The notes beneath the pieces were generated by a model. That model had not been told where the DNA came from. It saw only the letters and a program-made list of their open reading frames with translations, and did not search any database. A stretch of 58,193 nucleotides of DNA, filler included, from Sluysia triapertura (lineage: Eukaryota): the NCBI GenBank assembly GCA_046118255.1. It is 4 parts of 4 records of this genome, joined end to end, with 100 filler letters (N's around TTAATTAATTAA, not from the genome) between each part and the next. Parts side by side here need not be neighbours in the genome. Positions count along the whole stretch, not along the records: positions 1 to 14,395 come from JBJNIA010260955.1; positions 14,496 to 26,988 come from JBJNIA010093784.1; positions 27,089 to 38,082 come from JBJNIA010190441.1; 1 more part is not named here. The stretch is one strand, 5' to 3'. Below, one piece after another: positions 4,143 through 35,768 of the stretch. A program made the position numbers and the translations under genes. Position 1 is the stretch's first letter. Every line of letters starts with the position of its first letter.

Positions 4143-4194
4143 GGGTCCGCCTACGTCAAACGATTTACCTATGATGGACGTCTGCGTAGGATTT
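4143..4194. repeat. Dispersed conserved hairpin, copy 1
   Basis: gggtccg-cctacg-t-caaacg-[atttacctatgatgga]-cgtctg-cgtagg-attt; same architecture as the six other copies. Confidence 0.7.
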
Positions 4195-4971
4195 TTAAAG
4201 CTTTGTCAAATGCTAGTGGAAGAATACTATAACTCTTATCTTTTCTTGTTATAAGATTCGATTTATTTTTTATGCGACTCTGTATTGGAAATCTTTATCT
4301 TATAAAATCCTTTTTTGCTTAGTGATCTACTTTGTTAAAATCCTTACGTATTTTTTGTCCTTTCAAAATTAATTTAGTTTAAAATTAGTAATTAATCAAT
4401 TCCTACAATCCTTAATCAGTATTCAAATCTTCTCCTTTTTATCTTTAACAAATTAAAAATATTCCTTGAAGAACTTTTAATCCTTTAAAAATTTTATAAT
4501 CTTTTGTTAATTTAAAATTATAATGAAAAAGAAATCTGAATTCGTAAATTTTTTATTATTAAACAATAATTCAACTTTAATAAAACAACAATATGGACAA
4601 CTTTATAAAAATTCGATTTAGTAATATAGACAATTATAATAATAACTTGATCAAAAATATAAGGCAAAATTTCAATTTATAGACAATGATAAAATTTCGG
4701 TTAAACAATATGAGTAATTTTTTATAAGACAATAAAAATTCAATTTAATATAATTATAACAATAATATGTAATTTATAGGTTTAGTGGATTTTAACTCAG
4801 GAATTACTCGTGAGTTTTTTCTAATATTTGTATGAATGATTTTAAGTTTATTTTAAGACCGTTTATAATCGGGTCTATAACTTACAATGAAAAGCTTACT
4901 AAATCAGTAATAATCCCGAGCAAGATAAGCCAAATTGAAATGATGATCAACAAATTGAGTGGTTCCAAATC

Positions 4972-5113
4972 AATTATACCAATGATCGATTCCAAAATTA
5001 ATTATACCAGTTGAATCGTAATCGAATGTACCAAATTAAGATAAATTATACCAATGATTGATTCCAAATTAATTGTACCAATTGACCGTAATCGAATGTA
5101 CCAAATTAAAATA
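4972..5113. repeat. Tandem duplication, ~70-72 bp unit x2
   Basis: aattataccaatgat(c/t)gattccaaa..gtaatcgaatgtaccaaattaa occurs at 4972-5043 and 5044-5113. Confidence 0.85.
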
Positions 5114-6634
5114 ACCAAAAAACTTTTGTCTCTTTAAGAACTATATCTTTTCACTCGTGTTTTATAAATTAGTGCTATTTAATGTTTTCGTTAGAGCTTT
5201 TATACTCTTTTTAGCTCGTCTGTTTATAAATGTTCAGTAATTATATAATTATTTATTTAGCGTAAATTTCCTTATTCGATTATTATAATTTCCGTAGTTA
5301 AATATGAATTTTTCGAATAAACATCCTTATTTTTTGTAATAATAAAGATAAATTAAATCATCATAATGTAAGTTTCTAAAATAAACATAAAATAAATTTT
5401 CAAATAAACATAAATATTGTTATAATTGTTTATAAAATTATTATATTTTTACAATTAATTATTATTAGTTCATAATTTCAATTAAAATTATTATTATTTA
5501 GAATTAAATTAATATGTTTTTTACAATTACTATTTTCATTATTACTATTTATTTTTCAAATTTACAAGAATTTTACAATTATTATTATACACATAATTTT
5601 ATTTTTCTTCGGATATATTATTTACAGTATGTTTTGCATACTGTTGTTTTCTAGCGTCTTTTATCTTCTAAAGTATATTTATAATTAAGAGTGACTGTCA
5701 AGTTCTAATGAAATATCTCCTTTTACTTGTAGTTTTGCTTCACTTTTCTACGTTAAAACTGATTCAGATTTTTTGTATAATTTCAATAACTTCAGTTCTT
5801 CAAATGTTATCATTTGTGGTAATATACCACGTTTTACAACGTAAGAGCCACAATTTTATGTCAAATAAAAATATTTACTTTTAGTTTCTGAAATCATTTT
5901 GTCAGTTTTATAAACTATTTGAAATTCTGCAATAAGATTACGTTCTAATTTCATTCGTTCTTGGTATGCATTTTCTAAGGTATCATTGTTTTTCGAATAA
6001 GAATTTTCTTGGAATTTAAGGTTTGATTTAGTGCAATAAAATAATAAAATATTTAGTTACAATTTCAACACGATTTATAGAAATAAATAATTTTTGGAGA
6101 AATTCCGTGTTAGTTTAATAATTTATAATTTTATTTTGAAGTGTTTGAACGCTTGTCGGTTAATTTAGAGTTTAGTTGTTAGTGGTATTTTTTCAATATA
6201 CTTTTAAGTGAAAAGTTGAACCACCACAATTATGATAACTATTATTATTATTTTGTTAAAACTATCTCAATATTTGAATAAATTTGTGTCAAATGTCACA
6301 TTTCATTTAAAATCATCTAAAAGAATACATATATTTACAAAAATGCCTTTTTGTATTCAGTAATTTGTCCAATATGAAATGACCAAATGATAGAAATTCA
6401 AAAAATATTTTTAATCAAAACAACATCCATTTAATTTAAACATCGTTTTATAAATAAATTTCATTTTACGTATTATTTTATCAAAATATGAACGAACTAA
6501 ACTCAATTTAAATTTAATGAGCAATTGATCGCCTTACATTTTGAAAGACAAAAATACATGTCCAGTCCGTTTCTGCAGCCCACATTTATTTCAAATGAAT
6601 ATTAACGCTTCTTACCCGTGGGTAGTGTTTTATA

Positions 6635-6664
6635 AGTGACGCATGGATACGTCAAAGAGGTTAA
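6635..6664 (-). mobile_element. piggyBac-like transposon end
   Basis: Reverse complement reads TTAA-CCTCTTTGACGTATCCATGCGTCAC (TTAA target followed by CC-pyrimidine terminus). Confidence 0.4.
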
Positions 6665-6723
6665 CAAGTTAATTATAAGTATAATTATTTTAAATATTAT
6701 TATCAATTTATAATTATAAACAG

Positions 6724-6993
6724 TTTATCCACCAGATGTCAATGTTAATTCGAAATATTCTACAAATGATTATTATTTTTCTTACGATGGAAATATTAAT
6801 AGATCTGAAAGTAAAACTGATTGCCGGAATTGGGTTGATGTTTTAACTACATTTCAAATTACTTACGCGAATTTCTTGTATGCTAATCCGTTTAGAGCAT
6901 TAAATTACTGTCGACAAATCAATGTTAATGAAAAACTTCAGTGTATTACAAATCAAGGAAGTATAGAAACATGTGACATACCAAAATTAATAG
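6724..6993 (+). CDS. Exon encoding a kringle domain (four-cysteine variant)
   Basis: AG acceptor at 6722-6723 and GT donor at 6994, phase 1-1, open frame: ..NDYYFSYDGNINRSESKTDCRNW..RALNYCRQINVNEKLQCITNQGSIETCDIPKLI. This matches the kringle pattern Y.G....T....C..W...NYCR...C......E.CDIP. It is absent from the ORF track because it has no start codon. Confidence 0.8.
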
Positions 6994-8278
6994 GTGTTAA
7001 TTATATTTATTAAAAAACTTCAGTTCATTTATTTATTAATAATATTGTCTTTAGAATTATCTACTATTTTTTTACCTCTACGTACCATGATGCCATTTTT
7101 GATATATTATAAAAAGCCTTTTTAATGAAATTAAAATAACACAATATATTAGATAAATACAAGATATTAAATTAAATCTTTGTTAGGTCTTGTAATTTTG
7201 ATATCAATTATGTTAAATTAGTAGCTGGTATGACTTGCAATAGGACGTTAAATTAGTTCAAATTGAAGCATTAGAGTATAACACGTTAAAAGTATTTTTT
7301 CGATGAATTAGAATAACCAATACAACTCACCTGACAAGAACTGTAACTTCGTTAAATATAGAATTGTCATTGTAAATTTTTAAGTATTTCATCAGTAATA
7401 ATATTATATGAAGTGCTTCAGAAGAATCAGGATTGTGAAGAAGTTTAAGAAGCTTAAATTTCAAGAAGCGAAATTGATGAATCAAAGTTGATGAAGTTGC
7501 GTTACTGGAAATATAAAGTATTGAATCAAGACAAAAGGCTTAGCTTCTTGAGATTTAACTTCTTAATAAGCAATAAATAATTTTATAACTTCGTTTAATA
7601 TAATTAGACACTTTATTAACTCTTAACATTGTTATCTTTAAAAACATTAAGTTCATTGGAATTAGAATATTGAAAGAGCGGTAACGTGATTAAGTAATAA
7701 AAGCCAGATATTCCTTTATTTATCAATAGAAGAATCATCAAATAAACTAGTTTTAACAACATTTTATCATCTCGTTTGGCATACACCGTTTCGTTAATTT
7801 TTTAGGTGAACTTTTTGTGATATGTCGAAATGTTTGGCAGTAATTCCAGGCGAATATGACAATTTTAATGAATCAAAATTAAATAACTTCGAATCTTGAC
7901 AATGAATTAAAGAACAAAACACATGATGGTGTTGAAAATCAATTTTAAAATTTTATGTTTTTATTGCTTTTTGTCTACTCAATGTTTAACTGACGAATCT
8001 CAACAAAAATATCACTCCAATGTCAATTTATTATTACTGTCAACAATTTCTTGTGACCAAATTGAGACCAGTTTAATTCCACAGTCTTTGGTGAACTTTA
8101 GCGCTTTGTTAGAATTATCGAATTTATTTGCATTATTAACAATAATAATGTAATGAAATTACATTAAAGTAACATTAAAATAATTTAAAATAAATTAAAT
8201 TCTTTAACTATAACACAAGAACATCAAGAAACTGAAAAAACTTAAAATTTCGAAAATCGAATTGAAAACAATTCATAA

Positions 8279-8545
8279 ATGTACTCAAAAATAATAGAAA
8301 GAATAAAGCTTACCACATTTAATTGGCCAAGAAAGAAATCCCATAGGATAAGCAAAAACACCATAAACGTGAAAAGACATGAAAATCAAGTTGCTGATAA
8401 CTCCAACGTCAAAAAACTGATCTCAAATTTCAAACATATTAAGGTACCAAATTGTATTTAATATGAAAATATGCTTGAATTAGTTCTAGATATTGTTGAA
8501 CCATTGCCGTAAAATTTCAAAAATGGAAACGATATTCCGAAATGA
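8279..8545 (+). mobile_element. Gypsy-type LTR retrotransposon integrase remnant
   Basis: One frame with stops: KIIERIKLTTFNWP (zinc-binding-region K...RI...F.WP) followed in frame by LELVLDIVEPLP*NFKNGNDI (cf. PF....D..GPLP....GN.Y at the start of the rve core). Confidence 0.55.
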
Positions 8546-9654
8546 AAATAATTTAATAGTCGATTCGTTTGTACGCGACAAGATTGAGTCGCGTGATCAT
8601 ACTCCCTATTTATCTTTAGAATGTCCCAGTAAATGTTGCATATCGATTATCTGTGTGTCTTCTTAGTCTTATGTCAATGTAAAAAAGGACAAATGTTTCC
8701 CTTACCAATTCGAAAATAAAATTCAATAAAATAACATTGAACCTTTTGAATTACTAAAGTATCCTACACTTAAAACTATATGAACTTAAAGAAATCTCTG
8801 GTCTCTTGACCTACGACGTATTAGTGTTAAACTAAACCTCAGTCGTTCTTCTGACCTACTAAAATGTAAAATAATTTAATTCAACATACATTTGGTAGCA
8901 GTAGATCTAAGTAGCACTATTCAGATTATGATCCTAACATATTGTTTTATTTAAAATTGCATTCTAAAATTCTGAATTTAAGTTATTACACAACTTTCAA
9001 ATAACCATCGCTAAGAATCCTGATCATAAAACAATATTTATTTATTCTAACTTGTGTCAACAATATGTTCATAAGATTAAATTTGATGATGCTAAAGCCA
9101 ATTTCATAACTTATGACTATTGTAATCTTATTGCAAACCTTAAAGGTTCCATAAAAGAAATTATTTAATATCTAAGCAATACTATAGTGGTTATTTTTTA
9201 AAATATCTCAGAAACTAGTATTAGCTACTAAGTACGAACTTCTTGCTTCAGGTACAATATCTAAATAAACGAATTTTTTCTATAATTCATATTACTCTTG
9301 GTCGTCAGACCAATTTCTGCCGTTATAACACCTTAAACAATCCACATCCGCCAGATACATCTTCGTGTGTTTTGTAAATTTGTAATTGAAGTGTTATTTG
9401 ACACTTATTTGACATTTCAAATCTCATCTAGAAATATTAGAATCTTAAATCACTTTACGGATAATCAATGCATTTATTATGGCTAAAATTGCAACAAATT
9501 CAGAGATTTTTTCTATCGTATTACAGTAATCACTTTCATAATATAGAAATTTATGATAAGTTTTTGCTTGTATTTGTTATTAATTTCATCATAGTGCTGA
9601 GTAAGTGTTTTATTTACTTTTAACCTTAACCTGGCAAAATAGTTTTAATCTCAT

Positions 9655-9706
9655 GGTCCGTTCACAATCTACGTCTTACGCTCAAAGAGGGCGTAATTGT
9701 AGAAAT
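9655..9706. repeat. Dispersed hairpin, copy 2 (most divergent), ~50 nt past the protease stop
   Basis: ggtccg..tctacg-tc-ttacgctc-[aaaga]-gggcgtaa-t-tgtaga-aat; followed by ataaaagatttt, as in copies 6 and 7. Confidence 0.55.
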
Positions 9707-9756
9707 ACGACGATAACAGTATTCTTAAAATAAAAGATTTTAGCAACTTCGAGGGT

Positions 9757-10065
9757 TTATATATCACACTGTAAACCAAATTGTGATAATACACCCATGC
9801 CTAATATCATATCTTCTGGACATTTTCTCATTACCCAACATTTTATTTGAATTTTGTTTTGTCCGATTTCACGTAATATTTTTAATACTCCTAGAATTCC
9901 AATTTCATCTCCAGTTATTCCTGTTAAATATGAATGTTGTTTAACTAAATTGTTTAATTCCTTAGTAGTTAATAACAATTCACTTATTAATGAGGCAAAA
10001 GCTCCTTTATCAACTAATGCAGATTACATTCTTCCATTAACTCTCATGTCTACCATAGGTCTTCG
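9757..10065 (-). pseudogene. Retropepsin-like (A2 family) aspartic protease domain at the C-terminus of the polyprotein
   Basis: RRPMVDMRVNGRM*SALVDKGAFASLIS..LTGITGDEIGILG..CWVM..DMILGMGVLSQFG: catalytic ALVD(T>K)GA motif (one nucleotide from DTG), flap GITG and C-terminal ILG motif. Confidence 0.85.
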
Positions 10066-10203
10066 TGCACTGTTATAATTATTATTAGCACAAATCATAT
10101 AAATTAGATTTCTTGGAGGTGGTTGATATAAACTTTGTTTTTCTTCTTTGATTGGTTCAATATCTATTGTTTGTAATGCTATTTTTTCAGTTTGTTTTTT
10201 CTA

Positions 10204-12080
10204 TTTCTTTAAAGCATTTAATTGAGCGTGCGCATGATGTAACAAGAACGCTAAATGGAAAACTAAAAATGGAAAACATCCAATTATTAATTTCCACGTA
10301 AAACCTGATATTTTATAAATACCTACAACTGAAAATATTTGAGAGATTACAAGTGCAATAACTTTAATTAATACATATATTCCTATAAAACCTGAAAAAG
10401 CTTGACCTATAACTAAAAAATTTTCCCAAATTTGTTTTAAAGTATTATGTACTCCTTTCTTAAAATGATCGGGTCCTAGTAGTAACTCAAAGTTTATCTT
10501 TCAATCTTTTTCTAGTATTGCTTTATCAACTATGTTAGTAAGTATCTTAGATCTTTTAATTGGGAATAAGATTTCGTGCCAAGCCGCTTCAGTGTCTTCA
10601 TTTGAATAGATTCCTGATCTTGGAATGTTTTAATTTTAATTTTGTTTTCAACTATGTTAATCCTATAATTTCCGGAGTTTTAACTTGACTTCTGTGTGGT
10701 AAAGATATCCAAAGATTATCATCGATTTTATATTCTGGAGAAATCACATTAGAGCAGTGTAGTGTTTTTGGTTTCAATTTATTAGTTGGCATAATAATTC
10801 TAGTAACTGGTTCTAAATAAGTATTTTGATTTTTATACATTACCTGTAATTCATTAGTGCATTCGCTTTCTTGTCTTATTTGCACTTCAACCTTTTTACA
10901 TTTGTATGTATATAGAACTTCACCCATCAGCCTACCAAATACTCCTTCTTCTAACGGACGTAATGGTGCTACTAAATCTGGGTTAGTTATTGCTACAGCT
11001 AATTTCGTTCTTAATATTTCTTTGTTTAATTGACAATCTCTAGATATCAGAGCTTGATAAACTTTTTTTAATGACATAAGTCCTAAATCAATTTTATTGT
11101 TAAAATATGTATTTAATTGTAGATTCTTTGTGTCTATTCCTTTCTTGGCTTGAAGTATTGTCTTTTCTGATAAATATATTCCTTGGTACTTTGTTTTTGT
11201 GATTTCTTGTCCACATCTAATTTCTTCGATACAAATATTAATCCATCTTCTTCTTTGTTTGCCATTAAAATTTTCGGAGTTTTAATTTCATTAAGTCTTT
11301 TTCTTTCCGGTACATCTAAATTAACTTTATAGATTTGTTTTTTATTTATTTCTTATACAGCTAATGCATCTTCGTTTTGATACATAAATCCCGAAATTAA
11401 ATTATATTTAATTTGTTTCAAAGATAATAATGGACACTGGAATTTTTCTAATACATATATTAACATAGATTCACCGGTATCACAACTGGTTTGATCACTC
11501 TTACAAAATGGTCTGGACATCATAGTGCCTTTTTCTAAGTTGAAACTTTCATTAAAAAATTTTAAACTCACTACGTATGTTTCCTGCGCGACGACATTAT
11601 GATAAATTTTTCCTTCTCATTCTATTGACCCTCGCTCACAAGTACCGCCCATTAATACATTACCAGCTGTTCTGACATTATAAATTATTTTCTCATTATT
11701 TTTAATTTTAAGTTTATCTGCTTTATTTAAACTTGTGTATCCAGTTTCGAAAACATTGCGACAATTGTTAGGCGATATTTTAAATGGTTTTAACACATTT
11801 GTTATATGTATTATTGAAGAGTAACTGTGGTGTCCACAACACAAAATAACTACAGATCTTTTACTAAGCATTCTTTAACCAGTGTTGCAACTAGATGTCC
11901 TTCTTCGTAAACATTTAGTATTTTAATATCTTTTATTTTGACTTTATTTGGCCTCGATTCCGGACAATCTTCGGTGTCCAATAAAGAAAATTGGCTACAG
12001 TCAAAAGCTTCTATAGCATTGGTTTTATGAATTCCAAATAATTCCAATAAAACACATTATAAATAACACATTATTTAGTG
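10204..12080 (-). pseudogene. Chuvirus (Jingchuvirales)-like class III fusion glycoprotein / env, decayed
   Basis: Across frameshifts: signal peptide NVLFIMCFIG..TNA; IEAFDCS.QFSLLDTEDCP; KECLVKRSVVILCCGHHSYSS; CRNVFETG; AGNVLMGGTCERG; CDTG; CGQEITKT; YFNNK; YQALISRDCQLNKEIL..AITNPD..GEVLYTYKCKKVEV..CTNELQV..YLEPVTRII..C..P.Y....W; SGIYS..EILFP; TM region IWENFLVIGQAFSGFIGIYVLIK..GFTWKLIIG. This motif order is the one I recognise from chuvirus-type glycoproteins and their endogenous copies. Confidence 0.85.
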
Positions 12081-13756
12081 AAGTTCCAAAATGTGGAAAT
12101 GATTGATTTAAATTTTCTTTATTGTTAATTAATTTTGTTAATTTATTGTTAATTAATTATTAAGCGGTTCGTTTATAGTATCCTTTTCTTCTTTTTCTTT
12201 AATAATATTTTTCCAGCTATCTTGTTTATCAATCAAGGTACTTCATTTCTTATTAACAAAGTTTACAATTTTATCTATCTTTTCTTTGGTTAAGAGTGCA
12301 GCTTTATTGCATTATGTAAGCCATTATTATTTTGTCTTTCTCTATTAATGCCTGCATTAATTTGTTTGTTATTATAGTTTTATATTGACCATTATCAATG
12401 TAGTCGCTTATATCTGTATTTTTATATTTTTCTTCCATCATTTTAATTATCTTATTTAATGTACTTATATATTCTTTTAGTTTCGGTAATAATGTATTAT
12501 ATTTATCGACATTAGAAAACTTATTAGATTATAATACATAAATTATACTTTTGCATTTAATGTTTCTTCTAAAGTTTTATGATTAATTTTTTAAGTCAAT
12601 TACTTTTCTGCGTATTGGGGTTGAGATTATTGTTTCATCATCATTATCTTTATTTTTTCTAGGATTGCTTGGTCTTTTTTTTAAAAGTATTTGTCTCTTT
12701 ATCTTCTGTTATGTGGGTTTTTGTTTACGTCTATTATACAATCAGGTTTCTTCTTTTTTATCATTGGTAATATCAATAATTTTATTTTTATTATTTTCAT
12801 TGTAATTATGTCCATTAATTCTCTTAATAGTGACCGCAGCATTCTTTCTAAATCAACATCATTGTAGTGATTTATTAGTTCATCTAATTTTCTTAAATCG
12901 TGTGGGGGTTAGTATATTTCACTATTACTGCGGAAGTCATTGATGCTTCCTCATGGTTTCCATTCATCGATGGGTAACTGTAATCATTTGTATAATCATT
13001 AGGTGCTAATTTTCTATCATAAAAATATGGATCAACATCAGTTATAGTGGAGTCATTTGATTTAAGTAATTTTATAATGTCTTTTACTGTTGACATTATT
13101 GGGAGTTCCACGGTAATATTCAGGGCATTATTAATAATTATACTTATTTTGATTATTATTTAGGATTATTTTCTCTTTCTTTTTGACCTATTTTTCTTAG
13201 TAATTTTTTTTGCATTAGTCTTATATAAACTATCTTCATTACTTAAAATAGCGAATATTAATTTGATATCATCTCATTTTGCACACTTAGTTCCAAATTC
13301 AATAATTCATTTAAATTTTCATTTAAATCTTTAGAATTTGTAATTTCATTTGCCATATCTGATAAAAATTTTTCAACTTTTTGATCACTTTCTTTAACTT
13401 TTGATTCTGGGGTATCTATCTTTAATTAGCTGATATTATTATTACTGATTCCATATTTTCTATTTCCATTTCTTCCTTGGCACTGTAATACGCATTTTCG
13501 TCACTTATCTCCATTTCTTCTGCTTGTACTCTTCAGCATCAGTTTCTTTGTTAATATTTTCTATGTCTGTTTCTACTTCTTCATCATCACTTAGTTCATT
13601 ATTTGTTTCCGAATTATTTGATTGATTTTTTTCATCATTTATTTCTACTTGATTAATTTCTTCTTCTGTTGAAATTGATTCAGTACTTGGTTCCTCTTCT
13701 ATTTCGTCATTTTTATCTTGTGCTTCAGATTCTGTTTCTTTATCTTACCTTCCCAT
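12081..13756 (-). pseudogene. N-terminal part of the env-protease polyprotein (acidic low-complexity N-terminus plus conserved ~110-aa domain), decayed
   Basis: ATG at 13756, then MGR*DKETESEAQDKNDEIEEEPSTES..LSDDEEVETD. Continues through frameshifts via ORF 12893-13111 to SNKFSNVDKYNTLLPKLKEY..MEEKYKNTDISDYIDNGQ..KKIDKIVNFVNKK..IDKQDSWKNIIKEK, then the glycoprotein signal peptide. Confidence 0.6.
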
Positions 13757-14395
13757 TTATCAATTATTTCTCAACACAAAAATTACACCATAACAAATTT
13801 TACACATATCATTCACAACATTACACCACTCATCATTATAAAATTACAAGCTCCTGGTAAAATTTCTTTTATTTGCATTTTTAATCAAAATATTAAACTC
13901 AATGTTCATTGTCATTTTTATTATCATTATGACGCACTATCCTTTCTCCCGATTTTCAATTTTTATTTTTTTCGCGATTTATCTGTTAAAGCATCTCATA
14001 ATATACAGAGTTTAATGGAAATTAATATAGATGGTATACTAGTATAAAGAAATTGCTTGAGAATATATCAAAATTGCACTTTTATTCGAAACAATAAATG
14101 AATAAGAAAGAATTATTAAAGGAAAAGAATAAATAATTATTTAGAAATTGTATATCGTAGCACTTTAAAGTGACTTTCATTAAAAAGCTAAAATTTACAT
14201 AAAATACAAAAATAGGTTTATTAATCTTATTGCATTTTCAAAATATTAATTCACATGAGATACCATTAAATTTTATTAACTTATAAATTTAAAATAATAT
14301 ACTGCGGAATTTATATGAATCGAATATGTTGTTATTGAGTCACTTGATATATGTTTTTGTTTAAATCAGCTTTTTGGAATTGTGAGAAGTTTTTT

Positions 14396-14495: not shown

Positions 14496-14727
14496 TGTCG
14501 AAGCTTAGTATGTTAGAGATGGTTGATATATTATGTGATTTGTTGGTGTATATGAGTTAATGCGGTGTTGTGGTTATCGAATGTTGTTTTATGATGTTTG
14601 TGTTGGTGTATTTGGGAAGTAAAAAATACGATTATTGTGAAGATTGCATTTTGGTTTATAAATATTGATTTATAAATATTTGTTTTGATATTTTGATTGG
14701 GTTTAGAAATGAGTGTTGACCACTACA
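14496..14727 (-). repeat. Solo-LTR-like repeat fragment (strand-skewed, TGTAGTGG..CAAC terminus)
   Basis: GT-rich on +; ends gttgaccactaca; same terminal motif at 165-179, 6215-6228, 15780, 17444, 19264 and 20314. Confidence 0.5.
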
Positions 14728-15410
14728 ATATAAACGATTTTTACAATTTATTCGGAATGTCCAAATGTCCGTAAGTTGTTTATATAAGTTTCACGCTTAG
14801 ATATTTAGCGTTAAAATCTACTCAAACTCATAATTTTTAACCATCCAAGCATTCGCCTGGATTAATTTGATTTTTAAAATCTTGCACTATAGTTCAGGAG
14901 AAATCCTAAATTTTAACAGTTCTTTATATATAAAGATGGGAGTAACTGCAGTCGCATATAATTGACATAATTTGTTTGCAAATTTTCCTATAGACTAAGG
15001 TTTACTTTTTTGATGTAATGGATACGTACGAAGTATTCATCAAACATTTTAGTGCAATAACATAGCAGAGGAAATTTTTGAATTTCATGTATATCATTAG
15101 TACATGAAAGATTATTAAACATATCTCTGCTAGCAGATTTAGGCATTTTTAGTATTTATATTTAATACATTTAATGTGTGTCGGTCCTTGTAGAATCATT
15201 GCACAAAAATACTTTAATTTAATAAGAGTAAAATTTTAAATAATTAAATAATAATTAATAAAAAAAGCAATAATTATAATAAATAATGTAATCATAGATA
15301 TCAATATTATAATAATGATACAGTTATTAGTTTCTACGATGTAGTTGGATTACCGTGTATATTCTAAATTCATCATCATCACTAATAATATTCGTTTGGT
15401 GTACTATGAT

Positions 15411-15650
15411 CAGGACCAGATCTAGGGTTTTTGGCGCCCCGGGCAAAACAAAATTTGGCACCCTTTCTTACAAGAATATACAAGTTTACTGCGATTTAAA
15501 AAAATAGTTTAAAAAGGCGAAAAATCAAAATTACACAAAAAATAACAGTAAAAAATTTAGTTAAAAAATAATATTTAAAAGCGATACAACATATAGAATA
15601 ACATAACGAGCGCGTCTGAAGTTCGAGCGACGAAGGAGCTATTCCTGTTG
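15411..15650 (+). mobile_element. hAT-like non-autonomous DNA transposon end
   Basis: caggaccagatctagggtttttggcgcccgggcaaaac..ggcaccc resembles CAGGGCCGG-type hAT MITE termini; GC-rich island in AT-rich DNA. Confidence 0.45.
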
Positions 15651-15779
15651 CATACGTGTGACATAAGATTTTTTTATAATTCTATTTGTCAAAAATTCAA
15701 TAACAGTTAATTAAATTAATTTTTTTTGAAAAACATTTTGTAAACGGTTTACAATATTAAAATAATTAGCTTGGTGACC

Positions 15780-22638: not shown

Positions 22639-23087
22639 GTAAGTTAATCATTTTTGCAATTTATTATCCCATTCCTTACTGCATGTGTAAAATAAATTAT
22701 CACCTACAAAAATGAATTAAGTGATGCAGAGACGTCCTACAGGATATGTATTAAGATAGTTTGAGTTATTTCACTAATCGTAACGCAAACTCGTAATTCT
22801 ATATGTTTGATTTGAAAATGTTCTTTTTATTTATTAAAACGTCGTTTTAACTTTGCAGGAGTGTTACCTGTCTATTCTACGTATATTGATTTCTCTATTT
22901 TGTTATTTATTGGTTCAAATTTCTTTATCTTTCATGTTTTTTGCTTGAGCTAAATTAAATAATGTAATAACTCATAAAAAAATTAAATTATATTAATAAC
23001 TAAAAATGTATTCATAGTATATTCGTAAATTGAAGATGGCATTGATGGCGTTCCTGGTAGGAGCGTATCATTAAAATGATGCGTGAG

Positions 23088-24729: not shown

Positions 24730-26730
24730 AAGTTGATTCTCCGGTGTCACAATTCTACAGAATGATCGCGATACCATAGTTTCTTTTTCCATACCAAACA
24801 TTCATTAAATGATTTTAGACTTACAATATATGTCTTTTGTGTTATGAAATTTTATAGTTTTCCCTTCGTATTCTATAGATCCTTATTCGCAGGTTCCAAT
24901 ATGGTAAATTATATTTCATTATTTATCCTGAATTAATTGCCCTTATTTAAACGTATATATTCGGTTTTAAAAGCATTTCTACAATAGTTGGGCAATATTT
25001 TAAAAAGTTTTATATATTTGATAACTCTCTTACTGAAGAGTGGCTGTGATGTCCACAATACCGTATTGTCATAGAACTCTTTACTGCACAATCTTTTACT
25101 AGTGTAGCAACTAAATTTCCTTCTTGATAAACTTTAAATTTTTTGTCCTTAATTTGAATTCGGTTTGGTCTAGATTCTGAACAATTAAGAAAATTTTTAC
25201 ACAATTTTGTGTATAGCAAACATATTAATAGTATGATTATGAAAAGCATGTTATTTGTCTGACAACCTAATCTTGGAATTACTATGCTCAATATTATATT
25301 ATTACCAAGTGTATTTGAAAGTGTATTGAATAGTTCGTCGAAATTTTGATTATCTTTTTCTTTTACTATATTTCTTCAACCTCTTTGGTTATCGATCCAT
25401 AGTTTAAGCTTTTTGTCAATAAATTCTATAACTTTATCTATCTTTTCAATTGGTAACAATTTTCCTTTATCGCACTGAAATGTAATATAAGTTTTAAGTT
25501 TTTCGTTGCTTAAACCTACATTAATACGTTTATTTATTATTGGCTATTATCTGTATAATCACTAACGTAATTATTTTTTATATTTTTCCTCCATTTGTTC
25601 CATTATTTTTAACAGTGTAATCTATAATCCTTTAATTTAGGAAGTATTCTCTTATATTTATCAAAATTTGTAAATTTCTCAGACCTTCTATCAGTTGTTT
25701 TATAAAAGAATGTGGAGTAGCACCTAAATCAACTTTATCGTCAGATTTTCATTCAGTTAAATTCTCGATGGATTTATTTTGAATTTGAAAGGTGACAAAA
25801 TTTTAAGTTTTCATTGTGATTTCGTAAATGGTAAAATACAAGTTATTGACGGATCATTTAATTTAGATAACTTCTAATTTAATTTAGATACCTTCTTTAT
25901 CTAACAATGTTACTGGTAAGTGCATCAAAACATCAATTGATCCATTACTTAACACATTAATTTTCATTACCCTTTTCAGTTCCTCATTTCTTTCATTTAA
26001 CAGATTTTAAAAGATCTCTTGCTTTAAGGACTATCTGTTGGGCTGCATACCATGCATAATTATATCTGAATCGAGTAAGTTATCCATATTTCTAGCAATA
26101 TTTTTTTGCCTCTGCCATACTTTTGTCTAAATCCGAAAGGATTTTCTTTACTTCTTTTGTTAAATTTGGTTCAGGTGTATTTAACACCATGTTCGGTGAA
26201 ATGTCTTAGTTGGCTGATATTATTTGGCTCGATTTTATTTGAAACATCAGAGTTAAGTACTACATTTTCACATATCCTCGCACTGATGATTGACTTTATT
26301 TCTTCATCATATAAGCTTATTATTGACATATTTCTTTCTCATTATTTAAGCTCGATTCTTGTTGTTTTTTACTTGGTGTCATCTTAATATTATCTTCTTA
26401 AAATTTCTTAAAATTTTTTCATTTTTTATTTTTCCATTTCTTATACATTCGTAATTGTTTCTACTCGTTTTGATTCCTTATTTTTTCCTTTTTATTACTT
26501 TAAAAAGTTTAGAAAATATTCGCATAGGTAGTTAATATAGGTTTTGTCCTCCTTTTCTTTTCTTCTGGATTTTTTCTTTCGTCGCAGTCCTCATCATCCA
26601 ACTTATTAGATAAAATTCTTGTAGTACTCTTCGTTAATCTGCTTTGTCTTCTTTCGTATCCATTGTTTTTATAATCCACATCACTATATTTGTTGTTTTT
26701 TCTTTGTCTTTCAATATCTATGGTCAATTA
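24730..26730 (-). pseudogene. Second, diverged copy of the glycoprotein polyprotein element (5' half only)
   Basis: SEKFTNFDKYKRILPKLKDY..MEEKYK..SDYTDNSQ..INVGLSNEK..PIEKIDKVIEFIDKKLKLWIDNQ; signal peptide NNMLFIIILLICLL; CSESRPNRIQIKDK..VYQEGNLVATLVKDCAVK..YCGHHSHSS..CRNAFKT..GTCE.GSIE..TMVSRSFC. Collinear with 11500-12540. Confidence 0.85.
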
Positions 26731-26988
26731 AGGAAAATCCAGATAAAACCCTTAAATCTGTGCAAGGGTATGAAGCTAAAATTATAGAATTAGAACAAAA
26801 AAACTTTAGCTAAAGCTTTTATCAACATTACTAACGAAACATCCTCAACAATTCATGTACATGATCAACTTAAAATGTAACAAACAAATAAACTATTTGT
26901 ATCAACTACAAAAGTCGACGGTGCTTTAGAAAAAGCTAAAATATGAATTTCATATCGATTGCACCTCTTAGGCAGCACAATGATTGAA

Positions 26989-27088: not shown

Positions 27089-27118
27089 TTTTAAAGTTAT
27101 TCACATTTTTCTTCCCAT

Positions 27119-27159
27119 GGGGGGTAAAATTACCCCCCAGGTTGACTGACAAAGGTTAA
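27119..27159 (-). mobile_element. piggyBac-like transposon end
   Basis: Reverse complement TTAA-CCTTTGTCAGTCAACCTGGGGGGTAATTTTACCCCCC, with a subterminal palindrome. Confidence 0.55.
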
Positions 27160-28854
27160 TATTAATAAAAATTAACACAATAAATGATTGTAAATAATTG
27201 CATATGAATGTATAAATAAATTATAATACTAACAAAACAATATTACAAATAAAATTAATAAATATATAGATGAAATTGGCTCTATTATCATTAAAATAAA
27301 ATTATTTAAATGATACTAACCATGCTATAAAATTATTATTATCATTATTATTTCATTATCATGCGAAATTAATTGCAGAAAATTTATTTTAGAATGCTTG
27401 TAAAAATGTATTAGTTGTAGCAGTTCATAAGTGAAACTTAGAATAAGAAATAAATAAACTTTTTGGTACACATATGGATAATTTGTATATAATTGACATT
27501 CAAAGTTTATATATTATTATAGAAAGTATAATTTGTATGTACTATAACTAAATTAAACTTATAAATAGAATATCATAACTATTATGTACGATCATCTTTT
27601 TTTTAATTAAATAAACCTTAGTCTATCAAGTTTTAATTTATTTCTGAGTGCAGGCATTTGAATTTTTAAGTATTTTAATCATTAAGCATTGCACTTTCAT
27701 GCTTAAGGGCGAGTTCAGAACTAATCTCACAATTTAGGGACTAATTATAATACATTTGATTAATTTAGAAATCATCAATCACATTTTAAAGTTAAGCGAT
27801 CATAATGATGTGTCTTTTATAACAATGTCTTTCAAAATCAAAATAAAATCAATACATATAGACATACATTATTATTAATTATTAGTTGTAATAAATAATT
27901 ATTAACTATCACGAATAAATGTTCAATCATGAATAGATTCGAGTTAATTAGCAATTAACTTTACAAAGCACAAATATACATAAATTTCAAAAATCGAGAT
28001 CAATGTCAAAGTTTAAACAAAAAAAAATAACTAACACAAGATTTCCGTTCAATATTCAGTTATACTTGGTTAAAGCTACCAATTCGCTTAGCTTTCTAAT
28101 CACACTTCATTCCATTGATCCACTAACTAGAAGAGATTGGTTAGAAGCTTTAGGTTATATGTTTTTTGGTTTTTAAAAGAGAAAACACTTTACGAGGTTG
28201 TGAATGTTAGAAAGGAGACAATATATGATTATAAAAAGACATTTTATATAAAAGAATCGAGTATCCAAGAGTTTCCATCCTTGTTATATTATTTTATATA
28301 ATTTCATATTCAAGTTGATTTAGGACTTTATTTGGATTTTAATTTTAAATTCAATTGTCATTTAAGAAAAGGCTTTAAGCCGCTTTTTACAGATTACAAT
28401 TTTCAAAAGGTCTTAAGCTTATTTTTAATGGATTGAACTTTCGAAATGTAATTTATAATAGAAATTATCTTTATCCGAGTAAATACATTTAATGTGGAAC
28501 GGGTTTTAAGCCCATATTTCATATTATTATTTTCAAAAATGGAATTTTTAAAAGTATGACAAACATGCATCTTGAACACTCAAATGTATCTCGGCCATTT
28601 CTAATACAACAAATAAGTTACAAAATGCATGGATTGATGAATAAAAATGGATTCCAATTGAAAGCCGCTGTAGAAATATCTGTAGCAACATCGAGGTGGT
28701 TGCTGAATTACGATTTTGAAAATTGTTGATAAATTAAAATAAGATGGCAACTGAATAAATATTGTTTAAAAACAGCTAAAAATTAAAAAGGCTGACAATA
28801 AAACAGCCGCTATAACTAATCTAACGCTACTTTATATACTATTTATCAGCCAAT

Positions 28855-28960
28855 AGGAATCGATGGAATGTTCTCGTACATTATTCAAGAAACTTCAATC
28901 TATTTTTAGAAACGAATTTTCTTTTTTAGAAAATAAGATTCTTTATTGAAAAATAAGATT
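28855..28960 (+). repeat. Interspersed repeat shared with 41830-41900 (LTR U3-like)
   Basis: aatcgatggaatgttct (17 nt identical) and a following cgaattttctttt..gaaaataa occur in both places. Confidence 0.6.
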
Positions 28961-29271
28961 TTTAAATTATTTTAGAAGATTAAGATAGTACTTGTGTTAA
29001 TGTGTGTCGATTTACAACAATATAATATTGTTATCGACATTAGTTTATCATAAAATCGACACACATAAAATTATTCATATATTATTGATTCTTGAATAAT
29101 TTTATTTTGAATTTTATTAATCATTATCTTATTTTTGGACTTATTTGGAAATTTATCAATTTATTTATATCAATAGTGAGTTTTAATTTATTTAAATTAA
29201 ACTTTTATTTTAATAAAATAATTTTTGTTAATTAATTTTGTCTAATAATTAAATTTTAAATTGTTTAAATT

Positions 29272-29985
29272 AACATCCAAGGTTAATAGGTGAAAAAATA
29301 TAAATAGCACTACATTTAACAATAATTTACACAATTTTGTAAACACAATTTTGTAAACATAATTTTGTAATCTCATTTGTTCCACAATTCAATCTTCTCG
29401 CAGTTTTTTGGACAAACAATTTTTCACCTATTGTAAACGTTAGTTTGTTTTGTTTAAGGCAAGATATTTTTTTTATAAAATATCAGTGTAAAATCAACTT
29501 AAATTCTTTAATAATTGACTTTTGTGATCAATGTAAAATCATTTAAAAATCTTAATAAATCGGAATTACAATCAGTAATTTCTGCTACAAGATATTACTA
29601 TTATTATTATTTTATTCTAACCATCATACTTCATAATTTTTCTTTTGATTATAATAAATCTTCTTAAAAAAGTAGCATCGACTTTTGATATAATTAAAAA
29701 GGATAAAATCTTGAATTGAAAAATAATTTAAAGAATCCTTGTTATATGATTTATGTAAAATATAAAGAATCCTTATTATAGGATTTGTGCAAAATAACTT
29801 TTAAATTGATAACATAAGAAACGGTAAGATTAACCTCCAGACGTTAAGATATATATAGTTAGAAAATTGTTAAATTTTCAAGGCTTTAGATATCTTTTTA
29901 TTTACGTAAAATCCAACGGCTGGCCCTCGCTAGTAAGTCCAGTACGTTGGTGAACTCACGACATCACAGTTTTAACTTTTATTAT
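29272..29985. mobile_element. Non-autonomous hairpin-family element (~0.7 kb) containing hairpin copy 3 (29909-29959)
   Basis: One end aacatccaaggttaatagg matches 35749-35768 (reverse complement); acctcca at 29833; hairpin ccaacg-g-ctgg-[15]-ccag-ta-cgttgg-tgaactcac; internal 14-bp x3 and 34-bp x2 repeats. Confidence 0.55.
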
Positions 29986-30134
29986 ACCATTTCTTTAAGT
30001 TAATTCTCAAACTTGAAATGATTTTCGAGAGTTGTAATAACAGCCTAACAATTTTATTAAAAGTAAAAAAACTTAGTAAAGAGGTTAAAATAAAAATATT
30101 ACTAGAAAAAACTGAATAATTGAAAGTTTTGAAC

Positions 30135-30297
30135 NNNNNNNNNNNNNNNNNNNNNNNNNNNNNNNNNNNNNNNNNNNNNNNNNNNNNNNNNNNNNNNNNN
30201 NNNNNNNNNNNNNNNNNNNNNNNNNNNNNNNNNNNNNNNNNNNNNNNNNNNNNNNNNNNNNNNNNNNNNNNNNNNNNNNNNNNNNNNNNNNNNNNNN
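30135..30297. other. Assembly gap (163 N)
   Basis: Run of N. Confidence 0.99.
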
Positions 30298-31543
30298 ATT
30301 ATTAACAATGTTAATTTTTCTGCAAAAACAATAGCATCTGAGAATAACTGTCTTCTTCAGACATTGCTCAAGTATAAAATTTCAGCATTGCAATAAATAA
30401 TAGTTCAATGATTTATAACTGTCTTTAATCATATTATGTATTATTGTTACACTAAATATACAAATATTCTATAAAAACAATTGTCATTGCACAACAGAAA
30501 AATATATAAAATTTATTTTGTATAACAAATTTTAGTAAAAATTATAACTGTAAACTGTATTTACAGTATTTATTAAACTATGAATTTAAAAACATTCATT
30601 AACATTCTTAATTCTTCAAAACCTACCAAACAAAATATTTAATCTTAAACTTAATTGGTTAAAGTTACAGTTCACAATTTATGATGACTCATTTATATCT
30701 TCATTTAATTTTAATTATTCAGTATGTTTTTTTATATCAAATCTATTACTTTAACGTATCCTCAAATGGGTTTAACTATTAAATGTTATAACTTTATGTA
30801 TTTTTGTATATTATCAGTTTGCCTTTTTTATTTGTTTAATTAATTATTTCTTATCCTTAATGATTTAACAATTATTGTTCAATTTAAATTAATATCGCGT
30901 TCACGGTAAACTGTGTAGTTAGATTATTTTACACCTATGCAGTTAAAGATATCGGAGTTCTTTGAAGAAAGAAATTTTTGGAATCAGTATTACATTATTT
31001 AATTTTCCTTTTGGACATTTTAATTGTATCGTTTTGTTTTTATAAGCTTTGCAAAATTGCGTTAATAATATCTTTTCGATAAAATTTTTGAATAGCTCTC
31101 ATTTAATTAAGATAGCTCAATAAAAACTAAGACATTATTGTTAGAAAAAATACTCTATTTTAATTATCTATCATTATAGTGCATAAAATTTTCCTTTGTT
31201 TGTCAAATTGTACACCTTTTGTTCATAGTATACCTTCGTAGTTTGAAGTATTTTTATTCATCAAAATTATATTTACTTTTAGGTTTCCTATAAGAAGAAA
31301 CATCAATAATAATAAATTTATTATTAACAAGTTAATAACATTAAACCACATTTAAGAATAAAATATTAATCGTAAATATATTTATTCATGTCCAGAAGCT
31401 TATTATCGCTCACAATTAATCATTTCTTTAAAAAATATACATAAATATACGTCCAAAAACTTATTATTGACCTCCATTGATATACCTTTTCAAGTGCGAA
31501 GATTTATTTACCTCAATTGAATTTATATACTAAATATTTTTAA

Positions 31544-31595
31544 AAATCCAACGGTCTAGGCATAACCTGGATGCTGGATATGTTGGTGAACTCAC
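31544..31595. repeat. Dispersed hairpin, copy 4
   Basis: aaat-ccaacg-g-tctag-[gcataacctggatg]-ctgga-ta-tgttgg-tgaactcac; acctcca at 31470-31476. Confidence 0.75.
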
Positions 31596-32279
31596 TTAGA
31601 TTCTTTTATTCTGTAAGGACACATATTCTTATTATTATTAAATGTTATTAATATTTATTACTTGTTGCAGTAAATAACTTATTATAATTTTTCGTATTTT
31701 GTGTAAACTGTATCTTCAGAATTTGTCCCTGTTTTAACAAAAATATAATTATTTTTGTTATCATCTCTTATATTTTGTTTTATATTTACTCAAAACTCTA
31801 CGATAATTTTTTATTGCCTCTTGGTAAAATGATATAATTTCATGCTTGATTTATCTTATACAATTTTCACAAATTACTAGATTATTTTACATATATATTT
31901 ATCAAACAATGAAATTATCGTTATTATTATTGGTCAAGATTATTTTTATAACATTATTAATACCATTAGTGCTATTTTTATGCGGAAATCTTTTCAAATT
32001 TTATAAGGGAACTTGAAGAAGCAGTTTTATTTTGTTGAATTTTTCAAAGTTAATCCTGATGGTTCAATGTGACTCACATCTTTAAACTGTCCTTTGTCGG
32101 TGGAGTAATAAGACATATTTTATAAATTAAGACTAATTTTTATTGGCAAGATATTTTTTGAGGTTTATGGGTTTCATTTGTAAAGAATAAAAGTCTTAAT
32201 TATCGAATAACTTATCACTTATTTTATCAAAAAATTAATTTTTAAATAGTTAACTCGCCAATAAATTGTACAATGCTAC

Positions 32280-32330
32280 GAGTTTGCCTACGATCCTAGA
32301 CTTACAAGAAATGGCTAGTCCGTAGAATTT
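32280..32330. repeat. Dispersed hairpin, copy 5 (opposite orientation to copy 4)
   Basis: gagtttg-cctacg-atc-ctag-[acttacaagaaatgg]-ctag-tc-cgtaga-attt; tggaggt at 32430-32436. Confidence 0.75.
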
Positions 32331-33419
32331 TAAATAGATTTAACTTAAAAGAATTAATATTGATCAACTGTATTCAAATATGCAGTTCAACATAAATTTA
32401 ATTCTAATTTGGAATATGAATTTAGTCTGTGGAGGTGCAAATGTGCCTTGAATTAAATTCCTAATCTTCCAAAGTTTCTGTATGGTCTGAAGCGAGGTTA
32501 ATCTGAGTTTAGACTTGATATAATGAATTGGATTTCCGTTTAATTGCGAGTTTATTTGTGAATTATAATTTACATAAGGTTCTGTAAATATTATCCTGAA
32601 AAAATATTCAAGTGATGAAGATTTTGGGGAGTGTTAAAACTATATAAATTAATTAGATTTTATTATTGATCCAATTTAAAGTGATCAAAAAACAAAAATA
32701 TAAATTATTTAATTTAAATGACTTTATTACGATCCGTACTAAAGGGATCAATAAAAAAATTAACAACAGAGTAAATAATAAATTATTATTTATTAATAAT
32801 TTATTAAACAAAGATACAGTCACTTTAAAAAAATAATACAGTTACTTCATATAAACTCTAAAGCTTTATCAGTTTATTGTTAACAAAAATAATCTACAAT
32901 AGCAATAGCCGATTGACAAATAATTTTTGATAAACCGATTTAGAATTTAAATGGAATAATATTTTGACCAAAAACGTCTATCTAGATAATCTATTGTTAT
33001 TCTTATCGGTTAATATTCTACCTATATATTCATTGTGTTCATGTGTTGCTAAGTTGAACAATTATTATTTATTATGCTACTAAATTTAAACAATTATTTT
33101 ATTCATTTTAAATATAAAAATTCTTTGGAATAATAATATTAAGTTTTCTTTTGATTTTTAAACAATAATTTTAATTTTAATAATAATATTTTAAATAATA
33201 ATATTAAATACTGATATATGAAATGATATTCGTTAATATTTAAAATATTTAAATATATAAAATATAATCATCACATCGCATATAAATTATAAAAGCATCA
33301 TAGAATAAAGTCAAGTACATTTTGCTTTTACATGTAACATATACTTGATAACTTGTACAAGACTATTTAAAATTTACTTTACACAATTTCACAAGCACAA
33401 TTTTTAATACAGTTTTCAA

Positions 33420-34200
33420 TATAGTTTTTTGAAAGAACAAATTTTTGTAAATTTTTACGAAGTGGTATTCGATTCCTGCTGAACTTGCTTGATAAATCTT
33501 GGTTTAATAATAATAATAATACGTTAGTTTATTGTATTAAGTCACGGATATACGACATGCATCCACGTAAAATCTTTTTTGTAAATTTATTTTGTAACTA
33601 TTTATCAAAAAAGATCTTATCAAAATAGATCTTTCGCAAAATCGTCATTAAAATATTGTCATTTCAGGAATTAAATCGATTAAATTAATTCCTCGTAAAT
33701 TAGTTATTTTATTACTTTTATATTTCATTTGTAATTTTATTTAGCCATTATTTAACAAATTTTTCTTTTAAGTAATTATTTCTTCATTGATTAATTTTCA
33801 TAGTTTAAATTATAAAATACCCAACAGATTAAAGATTTCAATGATTAGAATTTAACTCTAATCACGTAAAATCATTTTCATAGATCCTTTTCATAGGATC
33901 TACGTAAATTACTCTGTAAATTATTTTTATTTTTCAGTTAAATAACACATTTATAAATTTGATATCAGTAACAGTTTTGCATTAACTTTTATTGAAATAC
34001 CTCCAGAATTAAACTAGATCTTCTAGATTTGTAATTAATAGCCAAGTTATTAAGCAAAAAGTATCCAAGTAAAACCATACACTCTTTAGAAAGTTATTTT
34101 AATCTTCACTTAAAAATCTTTTATCTACAAATCCAACGGCTAGCCTTAACTGGTAAGCCTAGTACGTTGGTGAACTCACATTAAAATCCTACTTTATTCT
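33420..34200 (+). repeat. Left arm of a large inverted repeat, containing hairpin copy 6 (34129-34179)
   Basis: Long collinear matches to the reverse complement of 34634-35310 (e.g. aaaatcattttcatagatccttttcataggatct, ttaaattaattcctcgtaaatta, gaaatacctccagaattaaa). Confidence 0.9.
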
Positions 34201-34209
34201 AAGAATCTT

Positions 34210-34470
34210 CACATATGCATGATGAAACAAATCGTCTAAAAGAACTTTTTCGAGAAGCACAAGACAAGCCTATCAAAAAAAGTATCATTAGATATAATAA
34301 ATCATTAGTAAAATAAATCACTTTTGTGCATACTAAAAATTTAAATTATCCATTTTCTGTTTGATATATTTGGATCTATGATGAACTGAAAGAAAATTAT
34401 GTCGCTTGGTAAATTTAACAATATTTTTGCGAAAATTCAAAACATGAATTAAAAAAATTGGTTAAACTTA
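34210..34470 (+). mobile_element. Possible retrotransposon integrase C-terminal remnant in the inverted-repeat spacer
   Basis: RLKELFREAQDK..RYNK..FSV*YIWIY loosely resembles the Gypsy IN tail (..Y.K.....F.VGD.VW). Confidence 0.25.
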
Positions 34471-34633
34471 GAAAATAATTTCACAATACTTACTAATATA
34501 TTAATTAATATTACTATGAATTTGTAATTAAAAAAGTCGAAATGATTAACAATTCTTTTATACTCTAATTATTAAACGGAGTTTAATTATTCAAATAACA
34601 CAACATTATTTGAGAATTTTAAAAGAGAAGATA

Positions 34634-35768
34634 GAATAAAACAGAATTTTAACGCGAGTCCACAAACGTACTAGGCTTACCAGTTAGGACTAGCCGTTGG
34701 ATTTGTGTATAAAAGATTTTAAAGGTTAGAAAAAATTGTCTGAGGTGTGTGTAGATTTGTTAGGGTATTCTTTACTTAATAACTTGACTATTAATTTCAA
34801 ATTTAATTCTGGAGGTATTTCAAAACTATTAATGATAATAAATTTATAAACATGTTGTTAACTGAAAAATCAGAAAAAATTTATGAAGTATTTTACGAAG
34901 ATCCTATGAAAAGGATCTATGAAAATGATTTTAAGGGATTAGAGTTAAATTCTAATCGTTGAAATCGGTACTCTACTGAAGATTTTATAATTAAAGCTAT
35001 GAAATTTAATAAAGACGAATAATTACTTGAAAAATTTATTAAACAATAGATAAATGAAGTTACAATTGAGAGTATAATAAAATAAATAATTAATTTACGA
35101 GGAATTAATTTAACTCCTGAACCAACACTATTTTAATAAAGAATTTGCGTAAGATCTATTATAAGATCTTTTGAAAAGTAATTACAAAGTAAGTTTAAGT
35201 CTATTTTGCGTGGATATGTGTCCTACATCCGTGACCTAATATAAGAAACTAAAGTATTATCTTGATTAAATCAGAATTTGTCAAAAAACTTTTGTTTTCT
35301 CAAAAGATTATGTTAAATTCGGATTTTACAAAAAAATTAACTATTTGACAAATTCTGCGACTTTTATAGTCGTCTTAGCTGGCCTTGGCCAGATTAAAAC
35401 AAATTATTTAATTAAAAAATTAAAACAAATTATTAAAATTAAATTTAAAATTATTTATATTTAACAATGTAAAAATTGCTTACGTTAAAATTAATTCTTT
35501 TAAATCTAAATAAACGAATTATAAAATTGTCAATAAAATAACAATAAATGAATAAAATTATCAATAAAATCAATAGTAATCACATATAAAAGATCAAAGT
35601 CACTTAACATTGATTTATTATTAAAGATTAAAGTCGTAATCATAAAGTTGTAATCATCATTAATTTACAATTAAAATCTTATACAGAAAAAAGAAATCAT
35701 TTGTTATAAGATATAATGTATTTTTCCTTTTTAATTCCTCTACATAATCCTATTTACCCTTGGATGTT
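34634..35768 (-). mobile_element. Non-autonomous hairpin-family element (~1.1 kb): right arm of the inverted repeat, with hairpin copy 7 (34654-34704)
   Basis: Hairpin, tggaggt at 34810-34816, and far end cctatttacccttggatgtt (35749-35768) shared with 29272-29290. Confidence 0.7.

Follow-up and report, generated by a model that had tools for sequence, protein, structure and literature searches.

The DNA considered here is a stretch of 58,193 nucleotides (nt) from the genome of Sluysia triapertura (assembly GCA_046118255.1), referred to below as the window. It carries a set of hairpins of about 50 nt, seven copies of which had been proposed in a first-pass annotation, and six of these seven form a real, conserved, covarying, and unannotated family. 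On the best reading, this family adds a structural detail, itself new, to a class of retroelements already known. With a probability of roughly 0.45, the hairpin is a structure of the R/U5 region, accompanied by a short primer site, of decayed long terminal repeat (LTR) retroelement 5' ends.

All seven stretches are present, on two contigs: copy 1 at 4143-4194 (+), copy 2 at 9655-9706 (+), copy 3 at 29909-29959 (-), copy 4 at 31544-31595 (-), which has an altered loop motif and the highest number of G-T pairs, copy 5 at 32280-32330 (+), copy 6 at 34129-34179 (-), and copy 7 at 34654-34704 (+). The strands given here follow the reading proposed below and are opposite to those of the first-pass annotation, which took copy 1, for example, on the minus strand. 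The GC content of the copies is 41-53%, compared with 21-27% in their flanks. A profile hidden Markov model (HMM) built from all seven copies matches exactly these seven in the window (E 1e-14 to 4e-6; next match at E 2), and with a covariance model built from the copies they score 34-70 bits. Neither the sequence profile nor the covariance profile reveals further true copies in the window; an eighth candidate at 25811-25867 (21 bits) has no stem, lies inside a relic of an envelope (env) gene, and was rejected. In leave-one-out HMMs, copies 1 and 4 are recovered weakly (E 0.1 and 0.034, respectively).

The earlier claim that the pairing covaries is borne out for six of the seven copies. In a register of two stems (6 + 5 pairs), which was chosen by eye and is thus biased towards structure, standard pairs occupy 74 of the 76 stem cells, and 7 of the 11 stem columns show a two-sided Watson-Crick change. 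When whole 3' arms are swapped between copies, the observed pairing is reached in 2 of 5040 permutations for all seven copies and in 1 of 120 for copies 1-5 only. When the six copies other than copy 2 are aligned with MAFFT and the alignment is left unedited, 85.9% of the cells pair on either strand; shuffled controls give 78%, with 1-2 in 500 reaching the observed value, and slid controls give 17-48%. Given that there are six or seven sequences, all related, the evidence of covariation is good, although below genome scale. The literature searched, to which subscription papers including Sacco et al. 2022 did not belong, contains no description of this hairpin.

Copy 2 stands apart from the others. 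It is divergent, lies about 35 nt beyond the point at which similarity to a gypsy protease stops, and its membership is unproven. Scoring it with models from the other six copies had been set beforehand as a refutation test; the HMM misses it, and it is absent among the 12 matches of the six-copy covariance model with E<=3. It fits a spaced pattern common to copies 3, 5, 6, and 7 that has no match in 500 simulated windows, a pattern that was relaxed after the fact to admit copy 2. From this resemblance, copy 2 is probably a distant relative of the hairpin family. Its GTAA, said previously to lie in the stem, is placed in the loop by a better register, as in the other copies. The idea that the hairpin is common to the env-protease element described below depended on copy 2, the sole copy beside that open reading frame (ORF); the link between hairpin and env-protease is weak because copy 2 is not recovered by models from the other six.

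The informative strand is probably the one opposite to that used in the first-pass annotation. Within the loop, described as about 15 nt long, the opposite strand can close three extra apical pairs, one of them with a G-U/A-U exchange. RNAalifold gives -7.39 with 13 pairs for the opposite strand and -6.28 with 10 pairs for the earlier one; on the six-copy alignment, the pair counts of the two strands tie. The suggested analogy to hepadnavirus epsilon finds no support, as TTAC lies in an arm of the apical stem and not in a bulge.

Alignment of the flanks reveals a second conserved feature. The word ACCTCCA lies upstream of copies 3-7 on the earlier strand and is therefore TGGAGGT downstream of them on the opposite strand, 67-123 nt after the hairpin. 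It is found at 29833-29839 (-; 69 nt after copy 3), 31470-31476 (-; 67 nt after copy 4), 32430-32436 (+; 99 nt after copy 5), 33999-34005 (-; 123 nt after copy 6), and 34810-34816 (+; 105 nt after copy 7). A possible decayed motif at 4286-4292 (+), 91 nt after copy 1, keeps 5 of the 7 bases and is weak. The word occurs seven times on both strands of the 58 kb, and five of these occurrences share one orientation and lie no more than 130 nt from copies 3-7. A blind k-mer scan of the 300-nt flanks ranks ACCTCCA first, with four of six lineages containing it (p 1.5e-6, uncorrected for the number of k-mers). On the opposite strand, [AT]ATAAA precedes the tail by 15-25 nt in six of the seven copies (p 0.009 for a 55-nt window), a motif that could equally be a TATA box.

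These motifs can be compared with published retroelements. In Supplementary file 1 of PMC13524379, in which rows were found by term search and all 36 nematode rows were covered, the reverse complement of the primer-binding site (PBS) ends in ACCTCCA in 11 of the 36 nematode elements and in 2 of 1476 others. Such a PBS is found in 11 of the 16 nematode elements for which one was called; it is labelled tRNA-Gln, tRNA-Ala, or other, and lies at the edge of LTRs of 141-462 nt. TGGAGGT is identical to the first 7 nt of this PBS of nematode GAG-ENV-POL errantiviruses. It also contains the complement of CCA, the mark of a mature tRNA end (PMC3315495). Furthermore, AATAAA followed by a GT-rich stretch is a conserved LTR pattern (PMC3601003), and the copies show such a pattern, with the poly(A)-type motif in six of the seven.

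Copies 6 and 7 are located in the arms of an inverted duplication of about 660 nt. The left arm (33490-34210, -) is non-coding and holds copy 6, the motif, and several small perfect hairpins, while the right arm (34627-35291, +) aligns to it with 471 matches, 93 mismatches, and 66 gap columns beyond the hairpin. At aligned positions the arms are about 83% identical, and the mismatches by codon position (23/21/20) mark them as non-coding. Small perfect hairpins number 3-4 per arm compared with 0.45 per kb in the window; two of them at 33842-33902 (no strand assigned), downstream of the motif, are 93% conserved between the arms, compared with about 82% elsewhere (Fisher p 0.013). A decayed ORF in the arms was considered and rejected (no codon bias, no Pfam match in 26 read-through frames, no viral relative), and readings of the motif as an F-box (xPPx) and as Trp-Arg were dropped on the same grounds. 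A target duplication was found neither for the pair as an element with terminal inverted repeats (TIR) nor for the arm model. Copies 6 and 7, which lie in these arms, and copy 3, which has some flank in common with them, are not isolated hairpins; the flanks of the remaining copies are unalignable.

On the opposite strand, the order of features is AATAAA or TATAAA, a GT-rich start, the hairpin, a putative U5 of 67-123 nt, TGGAGGT, and a putative leader with small hairpins. TGGAGGT would then be the first 7 nt of a PBS for tRNA-Gln or tRNA-Ala, with transcription on this strand and tRNA priming at the motif. Because the 7-mer equals a published PBS start, because the features follow the order of R, U5, and leader, and because a short PBS has a precedent, the hairpin most likely comes from an LTR R/U5 region. 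The precedent is Ty3, in which the PBS is split and is not recopied from the tRNA (PMC5371799), which allows for a short conserved core. Copies 3-7, and probably copy 1, may represent 5' ends that have decayed, or short non-coding derivatives, from Ty3/gypsy elements akin to the GAG-ENV-POL errantivirus relics that the window also contains. An action either within the 5' leader or within minus-strand strong-stop DNA may be the reason why the hairpin was kept; priming, the first strand transfer, and masking of a 5' poly(A) signal are possible roles. The compensatory changes would be differences between element subfamilies that came about during their active period, and copies 6 and 7 would reflect a later inverted duplication. 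The earlier view of a structured cis-acting element of a retro-type mobile element is therefore also favoured here, but not its sharing with the env-protease element, and the case named as refuting that view, in which the motif is simply the termini of a known LTR family, becomes the likeliest explanation. The copies most likely work like such 5' ends or derive from them; they are not filed as members of an LTR family because several defining LTR features were looked for and not found.

A number of observations weigh against this assignment. The primer match is 7-8 nt long in five of the seven copies, as judged against published tRNA-Gln and tRNA-Ala ends, while published PBS matches range from 8 to 18 nt. 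The bases after TGGAGGT differ in every lineage, whereas published nematode PBSs match at 11-12 of 12 nt. Eight of the 11 nematode rows are from Caenorhabditis and thus not independent, and the host is not shown to be a nematode. CA precedes the motif only in copy 4 (one of five), and TG..CA ends are absent; a Zam-type TAAYT 1 nt before the motif is limited to copies 6 and 7 (background 0.010 per position). A second near-identical LTR, a polypurine tract, and a target duplication were looked for and not found on these contigs, which are short, with a gap adjoining copy 3; same-orientation copies are 65-86% alike, and their flanks are unrelated. Searches with phmmer (10 N-terminal and 5 pol regions) detect no gag or pol remnant after the motif, and the arms, as noted, lack codon bias. 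Five PBS-bearing ends within 5 kb, including two back-to-back pairs, are an odd arrangement, and solo LTRs carry no PBS. On this reading, copy 2 and the env-protease ORF would point against each other, and copy 2 has no convincing match to TGGAGGT. Finally, the stem wobbles favour the earlier strand, with eight G-T and no A-C cells, although five of the eight either adjoin the bulge or belong to copy 4, which is decayed.

The same wobble bias can be used to argue for a family belonging to the host, made up of genes for small structured RNAs or of cis-regulatory RNA elements and enlarged through inverted duplication at the locus, which is possible but on the whole unlikely. In its variants, ACCTCCA would be an upstream promoter element on the earlier strand, or the hairpin would be a polymerase III-type RNA of about 55 nt with a T-run end on the opposite strand. 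Such a family would suit a core kept while its flanks become unalignable, clustered and back-to-back copies, a T run after the stem on the opposite strand in six of seven copies, and the lack of element ends and coding remnants. However, no Rfam family or tRNA is matched, and the distance to the motif, 67-123 nt, varies even between copies 6 and 7, unlike that of a fixed promoter element. The hairpin of copies 6 and 7 is only slightly better kept than the arms (90% compared with about 82%, p 0.24), and the exact match to a known PBS start would be left unexplained. Unlikely as well are undescribed short non-coding tRNA-primed retroelements or domesticated leader modules, in which a covarying U5 hairpin and a 7-nt PBS would act together, or a host small-RNA family with an upstream element resembling a tRNA end. 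For the tRNA-primed retroelements, the G-T bias on the minus strand would follow because the hairpin would fold in minus-strand strong-stop DNA, and its tail, which may be complementary to the T arm of tRNA-Gln, would pair with that arm in the primer tRNA. The motif may also be read as a conserved exon end with a splice donor (TGGAG/GT), the hairpin being a structure in the 5' leader of a gene, or of a family of long non-coding RNAs, that has decayed and was transcribed on the opposite strand. Conservation does end right after GT, the next bases are AT-rich and donor-like, a TATA-like motif lies ahead of the hairpin in six of seven copies, and introns in this genome are short and AT-rich, as seen between the exons of a TSG101-like gene; yet the arms show no coding signal and no Pfam match in the 26 read-through frames, and the conserved small hairpins fall in the would-be intron, so this origin is quite improbable.

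An end signal acting as single-stranded DNA, on either strand, in a rolling-circle (Helentron/HINE-type) or long-TIR DNA transposon is improbable. The copy 6/7 unit shows by eye no pair of 11-15 bp subterminal inverted repeats, the defining feature according to PMC4067079, and in copies 3, 6, and 7 the homology extends beyond the hairpin in either direction. There is likewise no target duplication under the two models considered above and no Rep/helicase or fitting transposase beside the copies, and the 7-mer would remain without explanation. These points stand against the facts that the two strands differ little in folding, the stem is flanked by T runs, long inverted arms contain copies 6 and 7, and copy 2 is situated at the truncation point of the gypsy pol, resembling a junction left by an insertion. 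The conserved unpaired bases of loop and tail could further indicate a self-cleaving ribozyme or an epsilon-like protein-priming signal, which is very improbable. The end of the loop resembles the twister and twister-sister loops, but the loop-tail pairings of copies 1 and 7 break by eye in copies 3-6, and no pseudoknot is conserved. A lone stem-loop is not known to suffice for a ribozyme fold, being too simple. The earlier statement that no ribozyme or small nuclear RNA is matched is confirmed by Rfam 15, which is null for all copies at E<=5 and for copies 3-7 at E<=10, and the small nucleolar RNA, spliced-leader (SL) RNA, and microRNA families likewise give no match at these thresholds. For epsilon, TTAC is paired rather than bulged, and the window contains no polymerase, as far as the search, made for gypsy pol only, extends. 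Hardly credible is a set of SL RNA genes with GTAAG as the trans-splice donor: GTAA is present in six of seven loops and a T-rich stretch follows the tail, but the base ahead of GT changes from copy to copy (G, C, A, T, G, G), the would-be leader differs each time, and no SL family is matched. A tRNA or the head of a short interspersed nuclear element was rejected (ARAGORN 0), as were an integron attC site, a frameshift signal, a telomerase template, Y RNA and stem-bulge RNA, an iron-responsive element, and U1/U7-like RNA, whose consensus features fail at the variable positions.

The env-protease element itself is located at 9742-12060 (-) and consists of a broken gB-type (Monjiviricetes-like) env followed by a retroviral-type aspartic protease, with many stops and frameshifts. 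The env belongs to PF24664, and a gB-type env ahead of a protease is the arrangement of GAG-ENV-POL errantiviruses, an order that Chary and Hayashi (PMC13524379) report from nematodes, flatworms, and bryozoans. The nearest relatives of the window env are 45-50% identical to it and include polyproteins with gag, env, protease, reverse transcriptase (RT), RNase H, then integrase, in that order. No RT or integrase is found anywhere in the window, and neither RNase H nor LTRs were found for the env ORF; the element breaks off behind the protease, while on its 5' side it reaches a contig end. Judged from its domain order, the env-protease ORF is a broken member of the known GAG-ENV-POL class and is not new. 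A second env relic at 24596-25683 (-) is more decayed (66% DNA identity) and has no hairpin attached. Locus searches based on env in viral and genome collections returned no relative.

Several features of these elements and their relatives were recorded in passing. Upstream of env, at 12896-13159 (-), there is an open stretch of 88 amino acids (aa) with a ubiquitin-like look and no Pfam or PDB match; Atlas features associate it with ubiquitin/Rad60-SLD clusters at 0.86-0.87, which is a lead only. The second relic has a stretch matching it near 25970-25911. In the env relative P0004, residues 9-70, just ahead of env, show a weak match to the Bcl-2 family (E 0.00096, below the cut-off), and the N-terminus of P0002 has a stretch that is similar by eye. 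Env elements of this kind may carry captured host domains ahead of env. In P0001, P0002, P0008, and P0151, at least two tandem aspartic proteases follow env, and P0001 and P0008 end without RT.

The window is composed of four contigs joined by spacers (1-14395, 14496-26988, 27089-38082, and 38183-58193) and has a GC content of about 24%. Its host genes are of a short-intron animal type and include TSG101-like, kringle, and cadherin exons; two protein searches with host exons gave no relatives. The TSG101-like gene (2543-3616, +) has introns of about 30-50 nt and ends about 500 nt before hairpin copy 1; a word-seeded search gave no relative for it, which suggests, on the basis of this gene, a fast-evolving host lineage. 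About 700 nt from copy 1, at 4900-5110, there are 3-4 degenerate tandem units of about 50-60 nt, the plus strand of which reads like a decayed repeat-protein frame. A dispersed repeat is common to 8245-8385 and 49752-49895, in opposite orientations on two contigs, and another of about 200 nt is found at 15779-15993, 19552-19640, and 20341-20512, with two copies 93-95% identical. A 72-nt unit is repeated five times at 49117-49545, where the minus strand is open as a 24-aa repeat. By eye, a decayed mariner-type transposase fragment lies at 46130-46351 (-) within the cadherin gene region, and a GC-rich palindrome with C and G runs, adjoining TTAA at the start of contig 3 (27115-27160), resembles the end of a piggyBac-type element or miniature inverted-repeat transposable element.

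Pattern scans outside the window yielded no relatives of the hairpin. The scan of viral contigs returned 43 matches (L001-L043), none of them a hairpin copy, with 42 in one codon stretch and 1 elsewhere. These 42 lie in what we take, from the translation, to be a codon stretch of a T4-like major capsid gene. The hairpin search pattern matches this conserved stretch by chance, which is a trap for scans of this type. A second pattern that included the 7-mer had no match in the viral contigs, and none was found by the pattern scan of prokaryotic genomes, while the metagenome scan gave 14 matches (GC 31-59%, best HMM E 0.03), all judged to be chance.

If the retroelement assignment is true, a hairpin with natural compensatory variants and a minimal primer site would be a ready test object for the start of reverse transcription and for strand transfer. 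The coding parts of GAG-ENV-POL errantiviruses have been catalogued, and the parts of PMC13524379 covered contain nothing on conserved RNA structure in their LTRs. If the copies instead belong to a host RNA family, they would constitute a new small structured RNA in a lineage without close relatives in the protein collections searched.

Compared with known systems, the hairpin has in common with hepadnavirus epsilon, twister, and twister-sister a bulged stem-loop and short look-alike words, but it has no Rfam score, priming bulge, or conserved pseudoknot. The ends of Helentron/HINE and DINE-1 elements likewise place a hairpin beside T runs in a non-coding repeat (PMC4067079), although the window copies lack the 11-15 bp subterminal inverted repeats and the sharp ends described there. 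The R/U5 regions of Metaviridae LTRs (Benachenhou et al., PMC3601003) have the same AATAAA-type motif, GT-rich stretch, stem-loop conservation, LTR end, and PBS; the window copies differ in having no TG..CA short inverted repeats. The HSV/gB-type GAG-ENV-POL errantiviruses (PMC13524379) have, ahead of the protease, the same gB-type env as the window ORF, whose closest relatives continue with RT, RNase H, and integrase, and the 7-mer found after the hairpins equals the first bases of the PBS that nematode members use most often. The window copies are broken and without pol, and their primer match is 7-8 nt compared with 11-12; an LTR hairpin is undescribed in the covered parts of that paper, where the one mention of a hairpin concerns protein. 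In Ty3 and Drosophila gypsy, the PBS is split (PMC5371799, PMC1635307). A second tRNA-complementary segment on the same strand is not demonstrated in the window copies, but a short 5' PBS with contacts elsewhere, as in these elements, would explain the 7-nt core.

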